Shown: positions 33,534-42,433 of the stretch, one piece after another
How the letters are laid out: each line of letters begins with the position of its first letter
How positions within the stretch are numbered: position 1 is the first letter of the stretch
Sequence record: PV730300.1
From: a phage
Reading direction: 5' to 3' (one strand)
DNA length: 64,000 bases
Notes under the pieces: model-generated
Database searches by the model: none
The model's input: only the letters and a program-made list of their open reading frames with translations
What the model was told of the DNA's origin: nothing
Translations under genes and position numbers: made by a program

Positions 33534-33794
33534 TTACTCCGCAATTTGAGCCATGAGATCACGCAGTTCGGTAAAACCGCCTACGTATGTTACCTCCCCG
33601 TTCACTTCAGACAGAATTTGTGGAAATGTGCGTGGAGGAACTCCGGTAAGATCAACAACTGTTTTAGTCATTGATTCTAAATCGTAGTCTTGGTCAAGAC
33701 TTAAATATTCAAACTGTTTATTGCGCATAGTCAATAGTTGTTTTGACATTTCACAAAATTGACAGTTAGGTTTACCAAAAATTACAAATTCCAT
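33534..33794 (-). CDS. glutaredoxin-like protein (NrdH/NrdC-type redoxin)
   Basis: CQFC active-site motif, about 86 aa, adjacent to RNR genes. Confidence 0.6.
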   Translation of the reverse strand: MEFVIFGKPNCQFCEMSKQLLTMRNKQFEYLSLDQDYDLESMTKTVVDLTGVPPRTFPQILSEVNGEVTYVGGFTELRDLMAQIAE

Positions 33795-34636
33795 TACCTC
33801 TCCTTATTAAGTAATACTGCTAAAGACTGTTCAATACCTTTATTTAAATCTGATTTTGTAAGATAGTGACTGGTTACTAGTTGTGACTTCACCGGACGTG
33901 CTGCTGGAGCATTATAGGTTGAAGCTGATACCGCCGATATCTTAACAGGTTCTGGCATCTGTGTCAAGATCTTTTCCGCAAACTCCGCCCAAGAAATAAG
34001 ATGGCTTCCTGCAAAATGGTAAGTCTTAACAGACCTTGACCAACCTGTTTTTAATACTTCAAAAATAGCTTCTGCTAAATCTGGAGCATATGTTGGACAA
34101 GAGAACTGATCAGCAACAATAATAAAATCACGTTGTCCATCATTATAGCGAGACAACATGGTTTTTAGAAAGTTATTTCCAAATTCGCTATATACCGAGG
34201 CTGTTCGAATAATATATGCATTTGGGTTAACTCCTCGCACCATTTTTTCACCAAGTTCTTTCGTATACCCATAATTGTTTATTGGGTTAGGTGTAGTATC
34301 TTCAAAAATAGGATGAGAATAATTAAAAATATAGTCTGTAGAAATATGCACAAAATCAATTTTAAGTTTGCTGCACACTGCCGCAATATTTGCAGGTCCA
34401 TACGCATTAACAGCCAAAGCAGTAGCAAAATCATGTTCTGCTTTATCTACAGCCGTATAAGCAGCGCAGTTAATAACACCGTCTACATAATCTTCAACAA
34501 TAGCGTTTCGCACAGCTTCAAAATTTGTAATATCTACACGTTCTTTAGGATAAATTAAAGATACGTTTGAAGGAACCACTTTACGTAAAGCTTGTCCCAG
34601 TTGTCCATTACCACCCAATACCAGATATGTTAGCAT
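33794..34636 (-). CDS. rmlD: dTDP-4-dehydrorhamnose reductase
   Basis: VLGGNGQLG, AAYTAVDKAE, STDYIF, YGYTK, NNFLKTML, DQFSCPT align to RmlD. Confidence 0.8.
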   Translation of the reverse strand: MLTYLVLGGNGQLGQALRKVVPSNVSLIYPKERVDITNFEAVRNAIVEDYVDGVINCAAYTAVDKAEHDFATALAVNAYGPANIAAVCSKLKIDFVHISTDYIFNYSHPIFEDTTPNPINNYGYTKELGEKMVRGVNPNAYIIRTASVYSEFGNNFLKTMLSRYNDGQRDFIIVADQFSCPTYAPDLAEAIFEVLKTGWSRSVKTYHFAGSHLISWAEFAEKILTQMPEPVKISAVSASTYNAPAARPVKSQLVTSHYLTKSDLNKGIEQSLAVLLNKER

Positions 34637-35196
34637 ACACCCTCACTACGCAACTGTTGAAAAGATTTAGCCATTGCATCTTTTGTTGATAAGATAGGTT
34701 TAAAACCTTCGTCAAAAATCATATCGAAGCCCCAATCGATCCCTATGTCAGGATCATCCCAACGTAAACTTTGTTCGCTAGAAGGGTCGTATGGAGTTGT
34801 GCATTTGTATTCAAAGATAGCGTCCATACTCAAAACTATAAAACCATGTGCCAAACCAGGGGGAAGCCAAAACTGCGTATGGTGTCGTGCACTAAGAACA
34901 ACACCGTCCCAAGCACCGTAAGTTGGACTATCTTTACGTAAATCTACAGCGAAATCCAATACTTCTCCACTTACACAACGAACAAGCTTACCTTGCGGGT
35001 TATTTGTTTGAAAGTGCATTCCTCGCAAAACACCGAAGTTTGATTTAGACATATTATCTTGAACGAAAGTTTGTTTACCAATGATATCTTCGTATTTTTG
35101 TTCATTGTATGTTTCTAAAAAGAAACCACGATCATCTTTATAAACGTCTGGTTTGATAATTACCGCACCTTCAATTTTTGTTTTTTCTACTTTCAT
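34630..35196 (-). CDS. rmlC: dTDP-4-dehydrorhamnose 3,5-epimerase
   Basis: DDRGFFLETYN, FVQDNMSKSNFGVLRGMHFQ, GKLVRCVSGEVLDFAVDLRK align to RmlC. Confidence 0.8.
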   Translation of the reverse strand: MKVEKTKIEGAVIIKPDVYKDDRGFFLETYNEQKYEDIIGKQTFVQDNMSKSNFGVLRGMHFQTNNPQGKLVRCVSGEVLDFAVDLRKDSPTYGAWDGVVLSARHHTQFWLPPGLAHGFIVLSMDAIFEYKCTTPYDPSSEQSLRWDDPDIGIDWGFDMIFDEGFKPILSTKDAMAKSFQQLRSEGVC

Positions 35197-35205
35197 TTTC
35201 TCTCC

Positions 35206-35532
35206 TTACCAGACATGTTGAGAAATAATAGTTTCCGTTTTAATGTTATATTTTTCAAGTAGCTCTGCATAGGCTTCTTTTGCATTCTCATTTACTTTCT
35301 CAAGATCTACAGCTACGCTTCCTTCTCCGCCTTCTAAATAAATACCATATATGCAATAAGACTCATCAGCATCGTAGAAAGGAGAGATGCGACTTAAGTC
35401 AAGACCTTCTTGTAAGAACCAGTTAAAATCTCCGTCAAATTCTTCTTCAATTCTAGGGTCTTCTCCTACAGCCTCTTCCCATTTATTAAAAGGTGCACCC
35501 TGTAACATACGCCATTCGATATCAATACCCAT
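35206..35532 (-). CDS. hypothetical acidic protein
   Basis: ORF track. Confidence 0.45.
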   Translation of the reverse strand: MGIDIEWRMLQGAPFNKWEEAVGEDPRIEEEFDGDFNWFLQEGLDLSRISPFYDADESYCIYGIYLEGGEGSVAVDLEKVNENAKEAYAELLEKYNIKTETIISQHVW

Positions 35533-35821: not shown

Positions 35822-36031
35822 TTATTCCTCCTTAATTATTTCAAACTTGGCAACACCGTTTACAATAATATGACCACAAGACATAACTCCTAGCCAAGGA
35901 TCGCCGTTTTTCTTCGGGCGTTTACCGAATACATCACAAAAACCATTCTTCATTTCGGAGGCTTCATAAGAAGCCCCTTTGTCAAAAACGTCTTTGAATG
36001 TGTCGATTATACCAACACATCTCAAAATCAT
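35822..36031 (-). CDS. hypothetical protein
   Basis: ORF track; ATGA overlap with nrdB stop. Confidence 0.4.
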   Translation of the reverse strand: MILRCVGIIDTFKDVFDKGASYEASEMKNGFCDVFGKRPKKNGDPWLGVMSCGHIIVNGVAKFEIIKEE

Positions 36032-37116
36032 TAGAAGTCAAGCTCCTCATCATCAGAGAGATCTTTGTTAGCTGAATTCAATTTGTAATTAGTTAACTGA
36101 ATCTCTTGGGCTGCTGACTGAATCAAATCAGGATTCAACCATTTTTCCATCCAAGCTAAAGGACTATGTTTAGGTGCTTTAAACTTAGCTTTCATTTTCA
36201 ATCGACGATAAATAGGAGCAGCATTGAAATAAACCCACTGTTTAGACAATTCGGCGTTAAGACCTACAATAAAACGACCTTCACTAAACAGGTAGTCACA
36301 CCACTGTTCCTCTTGTTCAACAACAGTGTCGAGGATCAAAGTCAACTCTTCAATATTGTCTTCGTAAATTTTACGCCAAATTGGGTCATGCATCAATGCA
36401 TCAATTACAGCATAATCCATCTTAACATGCAAGATTTCATCTAACATAATTTTCTGGATCAGTTTACAAGCCCCAACAAACAGTTGTTGTTCTGCCATAG
36501 CAAAAGTAGCAGAGAAGGAAGATATAAACTGAATACCTTCTAATCCAATCAGGGCTACCATCCCTTTAAGAATCAGCAGTCGAAGTTCATCGTTAGCTTC
36601 AATCAATCCTAGAGCATACTTATGACCAGCTTCTTCCAACTGACCCATGATATCAGCAATGATACCCATACGATTGAAAATTTTATCATTAATCATAATC
36701 TGATTGATGACTTCGATTGGATCTGGAGTACATTGACGGATTATTTCAGAATACGTTAACGCATGGAGAACTTCCATTTCACTCTGCTTCATCATCATAG
36801 CACAGGCTTCATTGTTACTCAAGAATGGAGAGAACAAAGTGATGATTGATTTTGCAAGAGAATCATTTTCCCATTGGAACGATAAGTTTTTAATCATAAC
36901 ATCATAGTTGTTTTTAGAACAAGCTACGAAATCTTTACGTGTCTGATCCAGATTGACTTCATTCTCATCCCAATCTTGTGCTTTTTGAAGTTTGTAGAGT
37001 TTGTGCATTTCTGGATAAGTTACGTTAACAGAATCAAAGATCCCTAATTGTTCCCCTAAAAATACTGGATATTTTCCTGTTTTGTAAACTTCATTGTGTA
37101 AATTAATTGCTGCCAT
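36031..37116 (-). CDS. nrdB: ribonucleotide reductase class Ia small subunit
   Basis: Length 361 aa; N-terminus and helical core resemble E. coli NrdB; adjacent to nrdA. Confidence 0.8.
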   Translation of the reverse strand: MAAINLHNEVYKTGKYPVFLGEQLGIFDSVNVTYPEMHKLYKLQKAQDWDENEVNLDQTRKDFVACSKNNYDVMIKNLSFQWENDSLAKSIITLFSPFLSNNEACAMMMKQSEMEVLHALTYSEIIRQCTPDPIEVINQIMINDKIFNRMGIIADIMGQLEEAGHKYALGLIEANDELRLLILKGMVALIGLEGIQFISSFSATFAMAEQQLFVGACKLIQKIMLDEILHVKMDYAVIDALMHDPIWRKIYEDNIEELTLILDTVVEQEEQWCDYLFSEGRFIVGLNAELSKQWVYFNAAPIYRRLKMKAKFKAPKHSPLAWMEKWLNPDLIQSAAQEIQLTNYKLNSANKDLSDDEELDF

Positions 37117-37133
37117 TTAAAATTCTCCTCAAT

Positions 37134-37155
37134 AAAAGGGGGCCGAAGCCCCTTT
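37134..37155 (-). other. conserved intercistronic hairpin AAAGGGGGCCGAAGCCCCTTT (copy 3 of 3)
   Basis: Between nrdA stop and nrdB RBS. Confidence 0.5.
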
Positions 37156-37184
37156 ACGTTTACCCTTCTTCACCTGTTCTCCTA

Positions 37185-39428
37185 CTACATTTTACAGGCA
37201 CTACACCCTTCGTCTTCAGAATCTTCTTGTGCTAAAGAGTCTGCTGATTTTGTTCTACTATTAAGGTAATACAATGACTTGCCACCCAGTCTGGCAAAAT
37301 TCAGAATAAACTGCATCTCAGCTTTCACTGATAAACGTCCACCTACCAATTTAGAATAATCTAGCCAAGAATCACAAGAAATTCCTTGGTCCGTGAACTT
37401 GGTAAAGATACCATACATTTCTGCAAGATCTTTAGCCGGAGTATCCCAGGCGGATTGGTAGAACATTTTCAGTTTTTCGTAGTCTGGAACAATAAATAAT
37501 ACACTACCTTTCTGACTTTGTTTATACATAATAGTATCACGAACAGGATACAGAGAGTTAGTAGTATTGCTTACCAAACTGCTGGACTCATTAGGTGCAA
37601 TAGCAGCCAAGACACTGTTACGGATACCACCTTGTTCAATGATTTCAGCACGTAAGCCTTCCCAGTCCATTTTAAGATCAAAATTACCGATACTATCTAC
37701 TGTTTTAGCATAAGTGTCAATTGGTAGCCAACCTTGAGGCCATTTGGTTTTATCGATCCATTCCGCATTACCTTTTTCCTTAGCCAGACGCAGAGAGGCT
37801 TTTGCCAACCAAAAGTAATGACGTTCTGCAAGTTCATGCATTAATTTTTTAGCATAAGCATCTGAATAATTTACAAAATTGCTTGCCAAGTAATGCGCTA
37901 AGTTTGTAATACCTACACCAATAGATCTACGTGCTTTAGCAGTTATTTCGTTATGTTTAAATGGATAATCCATTGTTTCAATAACGTTGTCAATTGTCAA
38001 TACAGTGTAGTATGCAACATCCTCATATTCTTCAGGTAATACACGACCAGCAACAATAGAAGATAAGAAGCATAAAGCCAATTCTTGATCTTCTGTATTC
38101 TCACCAGTAAAGAGATCCGGCATACTGTGGAAAGCTTTAGTTGGTAAGAAGATCTCTTGACACAGGTTTGATTGATATACCGTATCCAGGAAAGGTGTAT
38201 GGTTGTTAACGTTGTCAGCAAAGAACATGTAAATACGTCCTGTTTCTGCACGTTGAACAATAATCTCTGTCAGAAGATCACGAGCCTTAACAAATTTTTT
38301 CTTAATGCGACGACGGCTTACTTTGTCATAAACTGCATCAAACTCTTCTTCACTTTTATACAAAGCTTCATAAAGTTCAGGAGCATCATCACAACTAACT
38401 AACATCCAGTCTTCGTTTTTTGCTGCTCGACGCAAGAACGAACGGTTAACAACAATAGAATAATCTAGTTTATCCACTCGTTTATCTATAGGTGTTGTTG
38501 GATTCTTCAGTCGAATCAGATCGTCGAAGTCTGGTTCAAGTATGGTAAAGGTAACTGTAGCACTACCTCCACGGCTTGCTTGCTTTGAAGCTCCAACACT
38601 ATCTTCCATCCATTTCAGATACGGAAGAAGACCACCGTGAATAATACGATTATTCTTAACACCTTGACCTGTGGCACGAGTTTGAAGATTAACACCAATA
38701 CCTGCGTTATTCAACGTATACTCATGAGCTAAGTAATTAGCAATGGCTAAAGACTCTGCTGTATCGTCTGCACGGAATAAACAACAAGACGCACTTCCTT
38801 TGATCGGAGTTCGTAGAGTTGTCAGATACGGCGATGGCAGATTAATCTTAAGATCGCTAACATAAGTATAAAGTTTTTTAATATCTTCTATACGGCGTTC
38901 TTTTGGTTGGATCTCCATAACCTTCATTGCGACACCAATGAAAAGAAACTGTGGAGACTCATGCACCACATCGTTTACTGCATCTCGAATAAGATATTTA
39001 TCCACCATTTGACGTAAAACAGAATAACCATAAGTTAGATTTTTATTATGCTTTACAATCTTACCGATTTCTTTGATCTCTTCATCAGTATAATCCATTT
39101 TAGCCCAATGACCACGTTCTACCATATCATGATAAAAGGTATTCAGTGAAGGGATACTGTGGTATCCCCCATGAGCCTGTTTGTAAATCATACCCAGAAG
39201 AAGTCTTCCTGCCATATCACTGTAAGCTTGTGTTTTCTTGTCAATACACGCTGCAATCATTGCTTTATGCAGATCACGTGTAGACACACCGTCATAACAC
39301 CGCTTCACAGCTTCTAATTCAATTTCAGACCAGTTTAGTTTACCTGCTGCAAATTCAGACCACTTGCGAAGTTTTTCTGGGTTAAACTCCTCTGTCTTAC
39401 CATTAGATTTAGTTACAAAACGAATCAA
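37185..39428 (-). CDS. nrdA: ribonucleotide reductase class I large subunit
   Basis: 747 aa; ATP-cone-like N-terminus; C-terminal CSACKM redox tail; TTG start after GGGAGGAG. Confidence 0.85.
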   Translation of the reverse strand: MIRFVTKSNGKTEEFNPEKLRKWSEFAAGKLNWSEIELEAVKRCYDGVSTRDLHKAMIAACIDKKTQAYSDMAGRLLLGMIYKQAHGGYHSIPSLNTFYHDMVERGHWAKMDYTDEEIKEIGKIVKHNKNLTYGYSVLRQMVDKYLIRDAVNDVVHESPQFLFIGVAMKVMEIQPKERRIEDIKKLYTYVSDLKINLPSPYLTTLRTPIKGSASCCLFRADDTAESLAIANYLAHEYTLNNAGIGVNLQTRATGQGVKNNRIIHGGLLPYLKWMEDSVGASKQASRGGSATVTFTILEPDFDDLIRLKNPTTPIDKRVDKLDYSIVVNRSFLRRAAKNEDWMLVSCDDAPELYEALYKSEEEFDAVYDKVSRRRIKKKFVKARDLLTEIIVQRAETGRIYMFFADNVNNHTPFLDTVYQSNLCQEIFLPTKAFHSMPDLFTGENTEDQELALCFLSSIVAGRVLPEEYEDVAYYTVLTIDNVIETMDYPFKHNEITAKARRSIGVGITNLAHYLASNFVNYSDAYAKKLMHELAERHYFWLAKASLRLAKEKGNAEWIDKTKWPQGWLPIDTYAKTVDSIGNFDLKMDWEGLRAEIIEQGGIRNSVLAAIAPNESSSLVSNTTNSLYPVRDTIMYKQSQKGSVLFIVPDYEKLKMFYQSAWDTPAKDLAEMYGIFTKFTDQGISCDSWLDYSKLVGGRLSVKAEMQFILNFARLGGKSLYYLNSRTKSADSLAQEDSEDEGCSACKM

Positions 39429-39695: not shown

Positions 39696-40106
39696 TCATT
39701 GATTAGTATCATCTGCTTTCGCAGGATCATAAGAGTTACCGAAATCATCCATCTTAATATGTGACGCACCCCAACCTGTAAATTCTTCATCACCAAAATG
39801 AAAAATATCATTTTCTTGGTAGATTCGTTTAAAACCACAATTAGGTGAAACAGGGAAAGTGAAAAGCGTTGTATTTGCAAACACTACTCGCTTATCGTTA
39901 TTGCTTCGGATATTCACATTACGCTCAACAGAATAGTGTGAATCTTCAGCCATACCCAGCATTACAAGCGACGCTCTAATAACAGCATTTTGTTTCTCGT
40001 GTGGGATATTGCCATTGTGTTTATTTGATTCTAGTTTCCAGATAGGGGTAGACATTACAGTAGACATGCTTACGGTAGCCCAAGTTGTAGTATTTACTAA
40101 TGACAT
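39696..40106 (-). CDS. hypothetical protein
   Basis: Track ORF 39696..40139; start likely MSLVNT after AAGGAGAAAAT. Confidence 0.4.
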   Translation of the reverse strand: MSLVNTTTWATVSMSTVMSTPIWKLESNKHNGNIPHEKQNAVIRASLVMLGMAEDSHYSVERNVNIRSNNDKRVVFANTTLFTFPVSPNCGFKRIYQENDIFHFGDEEFTGWGASHIKMDDFGNSYDPAKADDTNQ

Positions 40107-40204
40107 ATTTTCTCCTTCGTTTTGAATGGGAGGACTCACCTCCTCCCAGTATTGTGCTATATTATACTAAAACTAATACTAAAGTCAATAACTATTTAAA
40201 CAGA

Positions 40205-41203
40205 TCACCATTTAGTATGATTTGTTAAAAGTTGACGATGTTGAATCCAGCCTTTGAAATTGCCAGACCAAAACTTACCATTACGATCTACATGGGTAAT
40301 ACCTGGTTCCCAAGAGTTAAAATCCCAAGGAGCATTGATAAACAAATCTTCAAAACAGTTCTCTCCATATTGTTCGCATGTTTCTTGCATTGGAGTGGCT
40401 TGATGTTCAAACGGAGAAGCATGAACCTTGCGCCCAGTCAGCAAACGACCATAGATATCTAAAGCTTTATCTTTAGTTGCATTCAAACGACGATAGCTAA
40501 CCTGTGCACAACACGAAGCTGAAATAGCTTTGGCTTCTTCCAAAGTAAGCACAACAACTTCTCCAGATTCATCTTGAACGTAGTATCCACCAAAAACAAA
40601 ATGATCGTCACCTTCTGTGCCAATATTATCATAGAAATGGTCTACATAAGGTGTGTGCCATTGCCCTGGTTTCAGCACCTCTGGTGTAGATTCTTCATAC
40701 TCTTTGTGCATATCTTTAGCCAAAGCTTCGATAGTAGGATCGGCTTCTTTGTCATCACGTAGCCACCAGAAATTTTCATATTCTGTTGCTGTCAGAACTG
40801 TTTTAATTCGTTGGAAAGGTTCTAGAAGACGGTTTGCAACTTGTTTGTGGTACCCTGCCAAAGAGAATTCTTCTGCAAAACGTGCTGCACTAAGCGCGGC
40901 AAGATCCCACCACTCTTGAGCAGTATAACCTGCATCAATAAGAGCGTCATGATCAACACCTTTATCCTGCATACCAGGTTGGTTAGCCCCAAAACGATAA
41001 GGACGAGCAGGTTGATTTCGCACCATTTCAATCAGTGTTTTAACAGGTATAGCACGGCTAGAAGCAGCATTACGACTGAACAGGCGGTGAGTCATCAATT
41101 CTGAATGAATAATACGTGGATATTCTAGTTCAAAAGTTACAATCTCTTTTCCGTCTTCAGTGATGGAATGCGCAATAATACTAGCCGAAATCTGTTTTGT
41201 CAT
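40205..41203 (-). CDS. thyX: flavin-dependent thymidylate synthase (ThyX)-like protein, atypically long
   Basis: THRLFSRNAASSRA matches the ThyX RHRxxxxxxxS signature region; 332 aa; RBS TAAGGAGAA. Confidence 0.6.
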   Translation of the reverse strand: MTKQISASIIAHSITEDGKEIVTFELEYPRIIHSELMTHRLFSRNAASSRAIPVKTLIEMVRNQPARPYRFGANQPGMQDKGVDHDALIDAGYTAQEWWDLAALSAARFAEEFSLAGYHKQVANRLLEPFQRIKTVLTATEYENFWWLRDDKEADPTIEALAKDMHKEYEESTPEVLKPGQWHTPYVDHFYDNIGTEGDDHFVFGGYYVQDESGEVVVLTLEEAKAISASCCAQVSYRRLNATKDKALDIYGRLLTGRKVHASPFEHQATPMQETCEQYGENCFEDLFINAPWDFNSWEPGITHVDRNGKFWSGNFKGWIQHRQLLTNHTKW

Positions 41204-41212
41204 TTTTTCTCC

Positions 41213-41821
41213 TTAGTTTTTAAAATTGTTCAAAGTGTTAAAAACATCCAAACATGTTAGCCACTGATCTTCTAAACCTGTGATCACAACATTTGGTTTT
41301 TTCTTTAGTTCTTCTAGATGGTTATCTTTATAAGGCGTATTAAAATATATTTTAACCACTTCATCTGGAAAATATAGTAGGTTATCAGCCCTGTCATCTA
41401 TTGCTATATCACAAGGCAATAAGTATTTTTCTTTCGTAGCAAAAAAGCCGTTACCAGATCCTTTGCTAAAATCAATCGTATCTAACGTTCTTAAAACATG
41501 CTTATGTTTAGAACTTAAGTGACCACCTTTTGTCACACTTGCGATCAAAAGATTGCTACCTTTCCTTGAAACATACTTTAAGAAATCCGGCATACCTGGA
41601 ACAAAACCCATTGTATCATAGAGATGAGGATTATCCAGAAATCCGTAAGGATCTATATTGAACTCCTCCCTGAAACCAGGAAAGTAGTTGGTAAGATCAT
41701 AGTCTGCATTTTTTGTGAATGTGTCTATCTTAACACCAAGTCCACTAATCTTATTCAACCATTCTAACCAAGCAACATCTAATGGAGCCACAACTAAATC
41801 CCAATCACATACTATCTGCAT
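41213..41821 (-). CDS. HAD-superfamily hydrolase, possible 5'(3')-deoxyribonucleotidase
   Basis: N-terminal CDWD (DxD) and IAIDDRADN (motif IV DD). Confidence 0.4.
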   Translation of the reverse strand: MQIVCDWDLVVAPLDVAWLEWLNKISGLGVKIDTFTKNADYDLTNYFPGFREEFNIDPYGFLDNPHLYDTMGFVPGMPDFLKYVSRKGSNLLIASVTKGGHLSSKHKHVLRTLDTIDFSKGSGNGFFATKEKYLLPCDIAIDDRADNLLYFPDEVVKIYFNTPYKDNHLEELKKKPNVVITGLEDQWLTCLDVFNTLNNFKN

Positions 41822-41857
41822 AAAACCTCCTCTCTCTTTTAGTATAGTTATCTTATA

Positions 41858-42433
41858 CTAACTTTCAATTTCCTGCAATAGGATTTTGACTATTTGTTTA
41901 CGGCGTTTTGCTACTGTGCTTTCAGGTTCTATTTTACGCTTCTTCAACCAAGCCTTATCTTTCTTAGCTCTACACAAAGCTATCGCTTCTTTTTCAGCTT
42001 TTGCTTCTTCAAAAGATATGCCTTGCTTGTCTGCATAAGCAAGAATAGAGTTGCACAATTTACAAACCATTCGCAAATCTTCTTCTTTCACATAGATCAA
42101 ACGGAAAACAAAAAGAGGGATATCATCAAAACATTGAAGTTGTTTTGCTGCGTGAATATGATCCACTTGGAAGTCTTTCATTCCTCCTCTATGTCCACAT
42201 ATTTCGCACTCACAATTCCAAACTTGTTTTGGTTTTCCAGTTTTCTTATCTATCATTACATTGCCGTCTTTATCTACACGATCAACTTTAAAACGCCTTG
42301 CATTGATAACCTTAATTTTATTAGGGTGTCTCATCCATGCTTTTCTAAAGCATCCCCTAAGATAAGTATAAAATTCAGCTTGTGTTTTCCAGGGTGTTCC
42401 TTCACCCCACATTATTTTTGGTTCACCTGCCAA
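41858..42433 (-). CDS. HNH endonuclease (free-standing, homing-type)
   Basis: CECEICGH ... QVDHIHA ... CKLCN HNH zinc-finger nuclease pattern. Confidence 0.6.
   Translation of the reverse strand: MAGEPKIMWGEGTPWKTQAEFYTYLRGCFRKAWMRHPNKIKVINARRFKVDRVDKDGNVMIDKKTGKPKQVWNCECEICGHRGGMKDFQVDHIHAAKQLQCFDDIPLFVFRLIYVKEEDLRMVCKLCNSILAYADKQGISFEEAKAEKEAIALCRAKKDKAWLKKRKIEPESTVAKRRKQIVKILLQEIES

Follow-up and report, generated by a model that had tools for sequence, protein, structure and literature searches.

The gene analysed here lies on the minus strand at positions 40205-41203 of a 64,000-nucleotide stretch of phage DNA (sequence record PV730300.1; hereafter the window), and it is likely to encode a ThyX-superfamily enzyme with a rearranged order of segments, a flavin-dependent thymidylate synthase that makes dTMP (thymidine monophosphate) out of dUMP (deoxyuridine monophosphate). 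The source phage, a phAPEC8-like coliphage, belongs to the genus Phapecoctavirus: dozens of records match the 10 kb surrounding the gene at 98.5-99% identity, and 46 phage records contain the protein at 99% identity or more, under the names 'putative thymidylate synthase', 'FAD-dependent thymidylate synthase' or 'hypothetical protein'. The annotation as FAD-dependent thymidylate synthase is probably right. An initial annotation had described the product as an atypically long ThyX-like protein (332 amino acids, aa) whose signature motif lies closer to the N-terminus than usual and has Thr where the RHR signature has its first Arg, and all of this was borne out; its proposal that the enzyme has been repurposed to make a modified pyrimidine was not supported. 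The gene and its parts are as follows.

40205..41203, minus strand: ThyX-like coding sequence with ATG start, 332 aa, stop codon at 40205-40207
41051..41092, minus strand: ThyX signature segment THRLFSRNAASSRA, residues 38-51 of the translation, with T38 for the first Arg
40679..41146, minus strand: ThyX core, residues 20-175, collinear with residues 60-200 of Thermotoga maritima ThyX
40400..40525, minus strand: relocated module, residues 227-268 (ISASCCAQVSYRR...HASPFEHQ), corresponding to T. maritima ThyX residues 21-60
40208..40387, minus strand: family-specific C-terminal extension, residues 273-332, for which hhalign gave nothing significant against canonical ThyX
40235..40267, minus strand: conserved terminal motif SGNFKGWIQHR, residues 313-323, with N315, Q321 and the invariant R323

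The ThyX fold has a non-collinear segment order

Homology to ThyX was established from domain matches, structure comparison and profile alignments. Pfam PF02511 (Thy1) scored 33.9 bits against a gathering threshold of 24.8, covering profile positions 59-191 only, on residues 22-175, and PHROG 85 'thymidylate synthase' was matched at E 1.7e-108. An AlphaFold2 model was built from a family alignment of 98 sequences (alignment A2), which was also the basis of the profile searches, and reached a mean predicted local distance difference test score (pLDDT) of 95.3 and a predicted template modelling score (pTM) of 0.92. Foldseek searches with this model returned ThyX chains only, with ~155-163 columns aligned in most matches and a target-normalised TM-score of ~0.5. 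No ThyA family or structure was matched when a ThyA fold or Cys nucleophile motif was looked for. A retron OLD nuclease that came up in a single-sequence search of PDB sequences (E 1.3) was dismissed as a chance match; the family profile was required to find ThyX.

The segments of this fold do not follow the canonical order. In an hmmsearch of PDB sequences with the family profile, T. maritima ThyX was matched by three separate pieces that were out of sequence: profile positions 215-258 fell on the tagged chain's residues 32-73, which canonically lie directly before the RHR-carrying strand, while family positions 24-53 were aligned to that strand itself. I then compared A2 with a canonical ThyX profile (alignment A3) using hhalign, and residues 20-175 corresponded to T. 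maritima 60-200 with 91% probability and residues 227-268 to T. maritima 21-60 with 94.6% probability (E 6.7e-08). The latter segment of the T. maritima enzyme comprises helix 1, helix 2, S30 and H53-E-T-P-F-E58-H59, and canonically precedes the RHR strand. The collinear order of N-terminal strand, helix 1, helix 2, HxxPFEH, RHR strand and C-terminal helices is thus broken in the query, with the module sitting after the core. When residues 220-268 were moved in silico between residues 19 and 20, the Pfam Thy1 score rose from 33.9 to 46.2 bits, coverage widened from 59-191 to 14-191, and the alignment crossed the artificial junction ('HASPFEHQ' joined to EIVTFELEYPRIIHSELMTHR, against 'HGSPFEHNS-MTFLVRAPIFTVRHLMRHR' of PolB).

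The motif lies near the N-terminus, and the protein owes much of its extra length, because the helix-helix-HxxPFEH module has been relocated behind the core; further length comes from a ~25-aa insert (about residues 190-215) and the C-terminal extension 273-332. The first part of this extension was variable or absent among cellular homologues, and the terminal SGNFKGWIQHR-type motif was kept even in 275-aa cellular versions (alignments A4 and A5). Atypical length and motif position thus reflect the rearranged order plus inserts and not an additional functional domain. The out-of-order segments also account for the only partial Foldseek coverage. The rearrangement is either a circular permutation or the transposition of one module, and hhalign of short pieces (residues 6-14; strands 202-219) against the canonical N-terminal strand was uninformative.

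Two short resemblances were recorded separately, and neither was used. C-terminal 'WIQHR' (residues 319-323, nucleotides (nt) 40235-40249) is like canonical 'WFRHR' (E 0.23, not significant), and 'ISAS' occurs both at residues 5-8 and at 227-230, where the relocated module starts, together with a weak extra BLAST segment in the homologue P0263, again not significant. They could be relics of a tandem duplication behind the rearrangement.

Active-site residues and the T-H-R clade

Segment THRLFSRNAASSRA aligned with R78-Y91 of T. maritima ThyX, placing T38 opposite R78 and H39, R40, S43, N45, S48 and R50 opposite H79, R80, S83, N85, S88 and R90, so that the query reads T38-H39-R40-x7-S48 in place of the signature RHRx7S. 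Further residues kept from the T. maritima enzyme are R147 (R125), N169 (N144) and L173-R174 (L148-R149), which lie within the core together with the RHR-type motif, and S30 (S236), H53 (H261), T55 (S263), E58 (E266) and H59 (H267), which lie in the relocated module. Conservation was assessed on 123 aligned sequences, that is, the query plus 122 representatives clustered at 50% identity and 38-67% identical to it. The dUMP- and folate-site residues R90, R147, R174, S88, H53 and N169 all have counterparts in the query (R50, R125, R149, S48, H261 and N144), and these, along with the equivalents of S30 and H59, were invariant or nearly so across the set. Invariant or near-invariant positions in full were H39, S48, R50, A51, K120, R125, N144, R149, H183, P185, S236, H261, H267 and R323. 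H39 and R50 were each found in 122/123 sequences, and the terminal motif was similarly constant (R323 in 123/123, Q321 in 118/123, N315 in 116/123). Position 38 was Thr in 118 sequences, Lys in two and Arg in another two. These four Arg- or Lys-38 members keep all other family motifs, which makes the Arg-to-Thr change separable from the rearrangement.

Among the 150 listed representatives, 17 were 520-680 aa long with their match to the query split in two (P0128, P0136, P0143, P0146, P0151, P0169, P0187, P0206, P0210, P0215, P0217, P0218, P0228, P0231, P0250, P0254 and P0255). I considered whether these long homologues were fusions with a second enzyme, and rejected this: four of the six scanned carried intein-splicing or homing-endonuclease (HNH or LAGLIDADG) domains, one of the other two had a sub-threshold LAGLIDADG match, and P0250 had no Pfam match. 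The insertions fell at three sites, namely the THR/SSR motif (around residues 33-53), right after R149, and after H261-A262. Inteins prefer active centres (PMC5050341), and their positions in this family fit that preference.

The clade is large and widely spread. An exhaustive search of 1.84 billion representatives gave at least 4,990 clusters (50% identity) at E <=1e-3, and tblastn found the family protein in 1,035 phage records, the hosts of which include Escherichia, Pseudomonas, Vibrio, Klebsiella, Caulobacter, Stenotrophomonas and Flavobacterium. Among its members are N4 gp30 and the rV5, ICP1 gp193, PAK_P1-like and phiCbK-like proteins, and the orthologues of rV5, ICP1 (gp193), Otagovirus VCM, G7C-like IME11 and phiCbK-like Magneto all carry MTHR[LV]F[SN]RNAxSSRA. 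All hallmarks of the clade were present in the query: MTHRxFSRNxxSSRA, HKQxxNRxxEP, NxxxLR...AQPE, WHxP, SxxCAQxSYR, HxSPxEH and GNFxGWxQxR. In two records, labelled 'Campylobacter phage C3' (MG065656.1) and 'A147' (MG065644.1), unannotated proteins share 72% and 53% identity with the query; the latter (53.4%) matches rV5-type records in identity, and both may be coliphage-like genomes with a misleading host label.

Clade members are accompanied by genes of deoxynucleotide synthesis (ribonucleotide reductase, deaminase, glutaredoxin). Ribonucleotide reductase adjoins the gene in phAPEC8-like, rV5, Otagovirus VCM, phiCbK-like Magneto, ICP1 and Barba5S phages, the Magneto locus also having a deoxynucleoside monophosphate kinase. 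In N4-like phages its neighbour is a dCTP deaminase (IME11) or a dCMP deaminase (roseophages; PMC2784036, PMC11934525). Among Rheinheimera phages of the genus Barbavirus, Barba5A and Barba19A have a canonical 222-aa ThyX between ribonucleotide reductase and glutaredoxin/MazG (TIGR02170 128.6 bits for Barba5A against a cut-off of 87.9), and Barba5S has in the same slot a 303-aa clade member, which shares 43% identity with query residues 6-254 (E 6e-62) and carries NTHRSFSRNAQSSRA, HFSPTEH and GNF...WQYR, that is, T-H-R and all hallmark motifs. Gene order was the same at the two loci compared (Barba5A L090 4244-4912, Barba5S L091 4684-5595), with two additional small open reading frames (ORFs) in Barba5S. 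The authors of the Barbavirus paper noted two unrelated-looking 'thymidylate synthases' and gave no explanation (PMC6715854).

Prokaryotic genomes, one per species, were scanned with a 6-sequence alignment as query, giving 178 loci. The complete chromosome of Pseudanabaena minima has a 275-aa gene (L082 5995-6822) outside any prophage, flanked by cbiC/tetrapyrrole methylase on one side and GAF/recO/MFS/malic enzyme on the other, and the clade gene was present in at least 12 Pseudanabaena genomes. In a metagenome-assembled genome of Eremiobacterota the gene (L053 5971-6858) is flanked by xanthine-dehydrogenase-type subunits and an M48 peptidase, and at least eight Eremiobacterota/Vulcanimicrobiota genomes have a copy. 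Judging from the gene neighbourhood, these cellular copies appear to stand in a housekeeping context. NCBI names them FAD-dependent thymidylate synthase. The short cellular versions retain MTHR, the relocated module and terminal GNFxGWxQ[Y/H]R; short clade members (275-295 aa) were also seen in many other bacterial assemblies (L037, L019 and loci from L009 to L088).

Gene neighbourhood and predicted function

The features around the gene are listed below; those of nrdA and nrdB were taken from their ORFs and from the annotation of the 98.6%-identical phage nieznany, and both promoter candidates are consensus matches only.

36031-37116, minus strand: nrdB, class Ia ribonucleotide reductase
37185-39428, minus strand: nrdA, class Ia ribonucleotide reductase
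41213..41821, minus strand: NT5C-like 5'-deoxynucleotidase of HAD type, 202 aa (Pfam PF06941 26.1 bits against a cut-off of 24.8, which it barely passes)
41841..41868, minus strand: sigma-70-like promoter candidate TTGAAA-16-TATACT (consensus scan 10/12), upstream of the nucleotidase/ThyX-like pair
40161..40188, minus strand: strong sigma-70-like promoter candidate TTGACT-16-TATAAT (consensus scan 11/12)
34630-35196: RmlC homologue, ~5 kb from the ThyX-like gene
33794-34636: RmlD homologue, ~5 kb from the ThyX-like gene

The nucleotidase gene lies directly upstream of the ThyX-like gene and is probably co-transcribed with it; an AAGGAG ribosome-binding site sits inside the 9-nt gap between the upstream stop and the ThyX-like start. 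The candidate at 40161-40188 lies in the 65-nt gap after the ThyX-like stop, before the next gene at 39696-40139, and the two promoter candidates suggest that the nucleotidase and ThyX-like genes form a two-gene transcription unit. Both nrdA and nrdB follow downstream. The initial annotation had placed the gene beside ribonucleotide reductase, a nucleotidase-like gene and the Rml genes, of which the first two are indeed there; of the Rml genes, only RmlC and RmlD were found, ~5 kb off, with RmlA and RmlB missing from the window. Both of the missing genes are present in the close relative nieznany.

Several differences from nieznany were recorded on the way. At 35206-35416 of the window, ~210 bp replace ~2.1 kb of the 98%-identical relative (L001 9325-11411) that hold RmlA (glucose-1-phosphate thymidylyltransferase) and RmlB (dTDP-glucose 4,6-dehydratase), RmlC and RmlD being retained; the Phapecoctavirus phages ESCO37 and ESCO5 show the same presence/absence polymorphism (PMC10269720). 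Nieznany also has an HNH homing-endonuclease gene between nrdB and nrdA (L001 13163-13819), where the window has 68 nt (37117-37184), and many near-identical records matched the region in two pieces because of this insertion. Outside the window's matched part, at 88.8-92.0 kb of nieznany (L003 8806-11950), four consecutive glycosyltransferase genes lie beside primase/helicase, and with the Rml genes these form a possible dTDP-sugar glycosylation system of the phAPEC8-like genome. According to the BASEL paper, phi92-like phages have a similar glycosylation system.

The function I favour is ordinary synthesis of dTMP from dUMP for the replication of the phage genome. The window has a GC content of 38%, and the phage would therefore need proportionally more dTTP than the host supplies. 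In nieznany, a near-identical phage with a 145-kb genome, the first 130 kb have no further gene annotated as thymidylate synthase, DHFR or dCMP deaminase. The ThyX-like gene would be expressed together with the deoxynucleotide module (ribonucleotide reductase, 5'-nucleotidase). In the proposed mechanism FAD would be reduced by NAD(P)H, and the methylene of CH2-tetrahydrofolate would pass to flavin N5 and on to C5 of dUMP, followed by reduction to methyl. The relocated module would supply H261, S263, E266 and H267 (equivalent to H53, T55, E58 and H59) plus S236 (S30), and the core H39, R40, S43, N45, S48, R50, R125, N144 and R149. The roles of the lost R78, R74, E86, Tyr91 and R165 may have been taken over by K120, H183, R238 and N315/Q321/R323. 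What the analysis establishes is the fold, its out-of-order segments, the conserved residues, the synteny and the spread of the family; use of flavin and folate and dTMP as the product are proposed by homology, and compensation by these residues is a hypothesis.

Ordinary dTMP synthesis is favoured because of the conserved linkage to deoxynucleotide genes such as those of ribonucleotide reductase across unrelated phages, because canonical ThyX and the T-H-R form have been swapped at one Barbavirus locus, because the chromosomal copies of Pseudanabaena and Eremiobacterota stand among housekeeping genes, and because relatives of the phage give no sign of modified DNA. On this last point, rV5-like and phi92-like relatives are highly restriction-sensitive (BASEL paper), and HincII patterns served to group the Phapecoctavirus isolates, none of which is one of the three phages that HincII reportedly left uncut in that study, namely the Tevenvirinae ESCO47 and ESCO58, and ESCO10 (PMC10269720). 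The BASEL 2025 paper has no Phapecoctavirus among its data, and restriction data for N4 are uninformative, the N4 genome having no relevant sites.

Several observations weigh against ordinary dTMP synthesis. The alignment to characterised ThyX and the structure prediction, both suggested in the initial annotation, recovered the fold and most site residues; in the alignments R74 is replaced in the query by S34, R78 by T38, E86 by A46, Y91 by A51, R165 by T140 and H178 by E153 (Asp in most members). The query accordingly lacks R78 and R165, which contact FAD/dUMP, as well as the Tyr91 lid. In canonical enzymes the first Arg of RHR forms hydrogen bonds with dUMP and the isoalloxazine, and C5/N5 are shielded by the Tyr (structural review PMC6514825). 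The NCBIfam equivalog TIGR02170 (thyX) scored 31 bits, far below its cut-off of 87.9. The restriction data come from rV5-like, phi92-like and other Phapecoctavirus isolates and not from the window's phage, and no biochemistry or structure of a clade member, N4 gp30-type proteins included, was found in the literature searched.

These losses could point instead to a neofunctionalised ThyX homologue, in which the altered site (T38, A46, A51, no Tyr lid) diverts the one-carbon unit into a modified pyrimidine, for example by hydration of the exocyclic methylene to give 5-hydroxymethyl-dUMP or by methylation of dCMP or UMP, the product possibly being decorated further by phage glycosyltransferases with dTDP-sugars. 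I consider this unlikely. The residues that contact isoalloxazine and dUMP and shield C5/N5 are indeed lost, the ThyX mechanism does run via an exocyclic methylene (PMC8989533), ThyA homologues have been repurposed repeatedly in phages (PMC13326640), and PolB is a precedent for drift of ThyX specificity; the gene also adjoins a putative deoxynucleotidase, and the phAPEC8-like genome has Rml genes and four glycosyltransferases. However, the same motifs occur clade-wide, T-H-R included, also where nothing indicates that the phage DNA is modified, as in restriction-sensitive phages and the Phapecoctavirus isolates grouped by HincII patterns. Canonical ThyX and the T-H-R form are exchanged at the Barbavirus locus, bacterial chromosomes carry copies in housekeeping contexts, and some members retain Arg or Lys at position 38 with the other motifs intact. 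Moreover, the window has no RmlA or RmlB, which leaves a dedicated dTDP-sugar pathway incomplete, no nucleotide kinase or DNA-modification genes stand beside the ThyX-like gene, and the literature searched gave no ThyX-fold enzyme implicated in phage DNA hypermodification.

It is decidedly improbable that the T-H-R clade as a whole, or its phAPEC8-type part, does something other than plain dTMP synthesis, the loss of the first Arg, Glu86 and the Tyr lid leading, for example, to hydration of the methylene to 5-hydroxymethyl-dUMP or to its transfer to another pyrimidine nucleotide. If true, this would be the first ThyX-fold enzyme feeding phage DNA modification, perhaps partial or masked and so escaping restriction assays. 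The gene is not good evidence for modified phage DNA.

A catalytically dead ThyX-like protein with another role (nucleotide or flavin binding, regulation, or a scaffold for a dNTP-synthesis complex) would explain the loss of several canonical ligand residues and the low scores of curated ThyX models, but is highly improbable, given that the 123 sequences show little or no variation at ~30 positions, His53 and the key catalytic arginines among them, that inteins target the active-site motifs, that the family replaces canonical ThyX in Barba5S, and that the annotation of 0-130 kb of nieznany gives no second thymidylate synthase.

Significance and comparison with known systems

Antibacterial drugs are aimed at ThyX, which is also a textbook example of methyl transfer mediated by a flavin; its RHR arginine and lid tyrosine are regarded as core, and here a large natural clade lacks both and has its segments reordered. 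If its members are active thymidylate synthases, the clade shows which features of ThyX are truly essential, provides a natural rearranged scaffold for mechanistic work, and explains under-detection or exclusion by curated ThyX models and by the RHRx7S filter of evolutionary surveys (PMC2826268). For enzymologists the T-H-R clade is of moderate interest; as a pointer to modified DNA in phages its interest is low. No earlier description of a permuted or divergent ThyX was found in the literature searched. What appears to be new is the recognition of the clade, already catalogued as thymidylate synthase, as a non-collinear ThyX variant without the first RHR arginine and the lid tyrosine. Liu and Yang (J Bacteriol, 2004) reportedly described cyanobacterial thyX 'with distinctive ThyX motifs', which may already be the T-H-R subfamily and would limit this novelty.

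ThyA-fold phage enzymes, such as dCMP/dUMP hydroxymethylases and 5-hydroxy-dCMP synthases, act at the same step, C5 chemistry on pyrimidine mononucleotides in the dNTP modules of phages, and are the analogy behind the proposal of the initial annotation. Their fold is unrelated, and the DNA of their phages is restriction-resistant, whereas that of the query's relatives is not. PolB of Streptomyces cacaoi/viridochromogenes (PDB 4P5A) is a ThyX paralogue that methylates UMP/dUMP at C5 in polyoxin biosynthesis; unlike the query, it is collinear with ThyX, keeps RHR ('LMRHRTWSFNEESAR' in the alignment) and is encoded in an antibiotic gene cluster, and nothing in the query suggests UMP as a substrate.

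With canonical ThyX, also known as FDTS (flavin-dependent thymidylate synthase; PF02511, TIGR02170; T. maritima TM0449, M. tuberculosis, H. pylori, PBCV-1 A674R), the query shares H-R-x2-S-x-N-x2-S-x-R, the equivalents of R147, N169, L173 and R174, and the S30 and HxxPFEH (His53) elements. Both keep the same genomic company (ribonucleotide reductase, dCMP/dCTP deaminase) and are interchangeable at one phage locus. The canonical enzyme is a homotetramer with bound FAD, and three of its subunits share each active site. In contrast to the canonical form, the query has the His53 module after the core, Thr for the first Arg, and replacements of R74, E86, Tyr91, R165 and H178, and its clade is 275-340 aa long instead of ~220, with the GNFxGWxQ[Y/H]R motif and lineage-specific inserts.

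The query is itself a member of the PHROG 85 group of phage proteins annotated as 'putative thymidylate synthase' (N4 gp30, rV5 gp106, ICP1 gp193, DSS3phi2 ORF29, IME11_42, CcrMagneto gp113, Barba5S gp006). With five of these proteins it shares 36-57% identity (alignment A4; N4 gp30 and the DSS3phi2 protein were left unaligned), and it is 99-100% identical to proteins of many Phapecoctavirus records, with identical motifs and ribonucleotide reductase linkage. It shows no material difference from the group and is set apart from its shortest members by its ~25-aa insert (about 190-215) and a longer 273-312 region.

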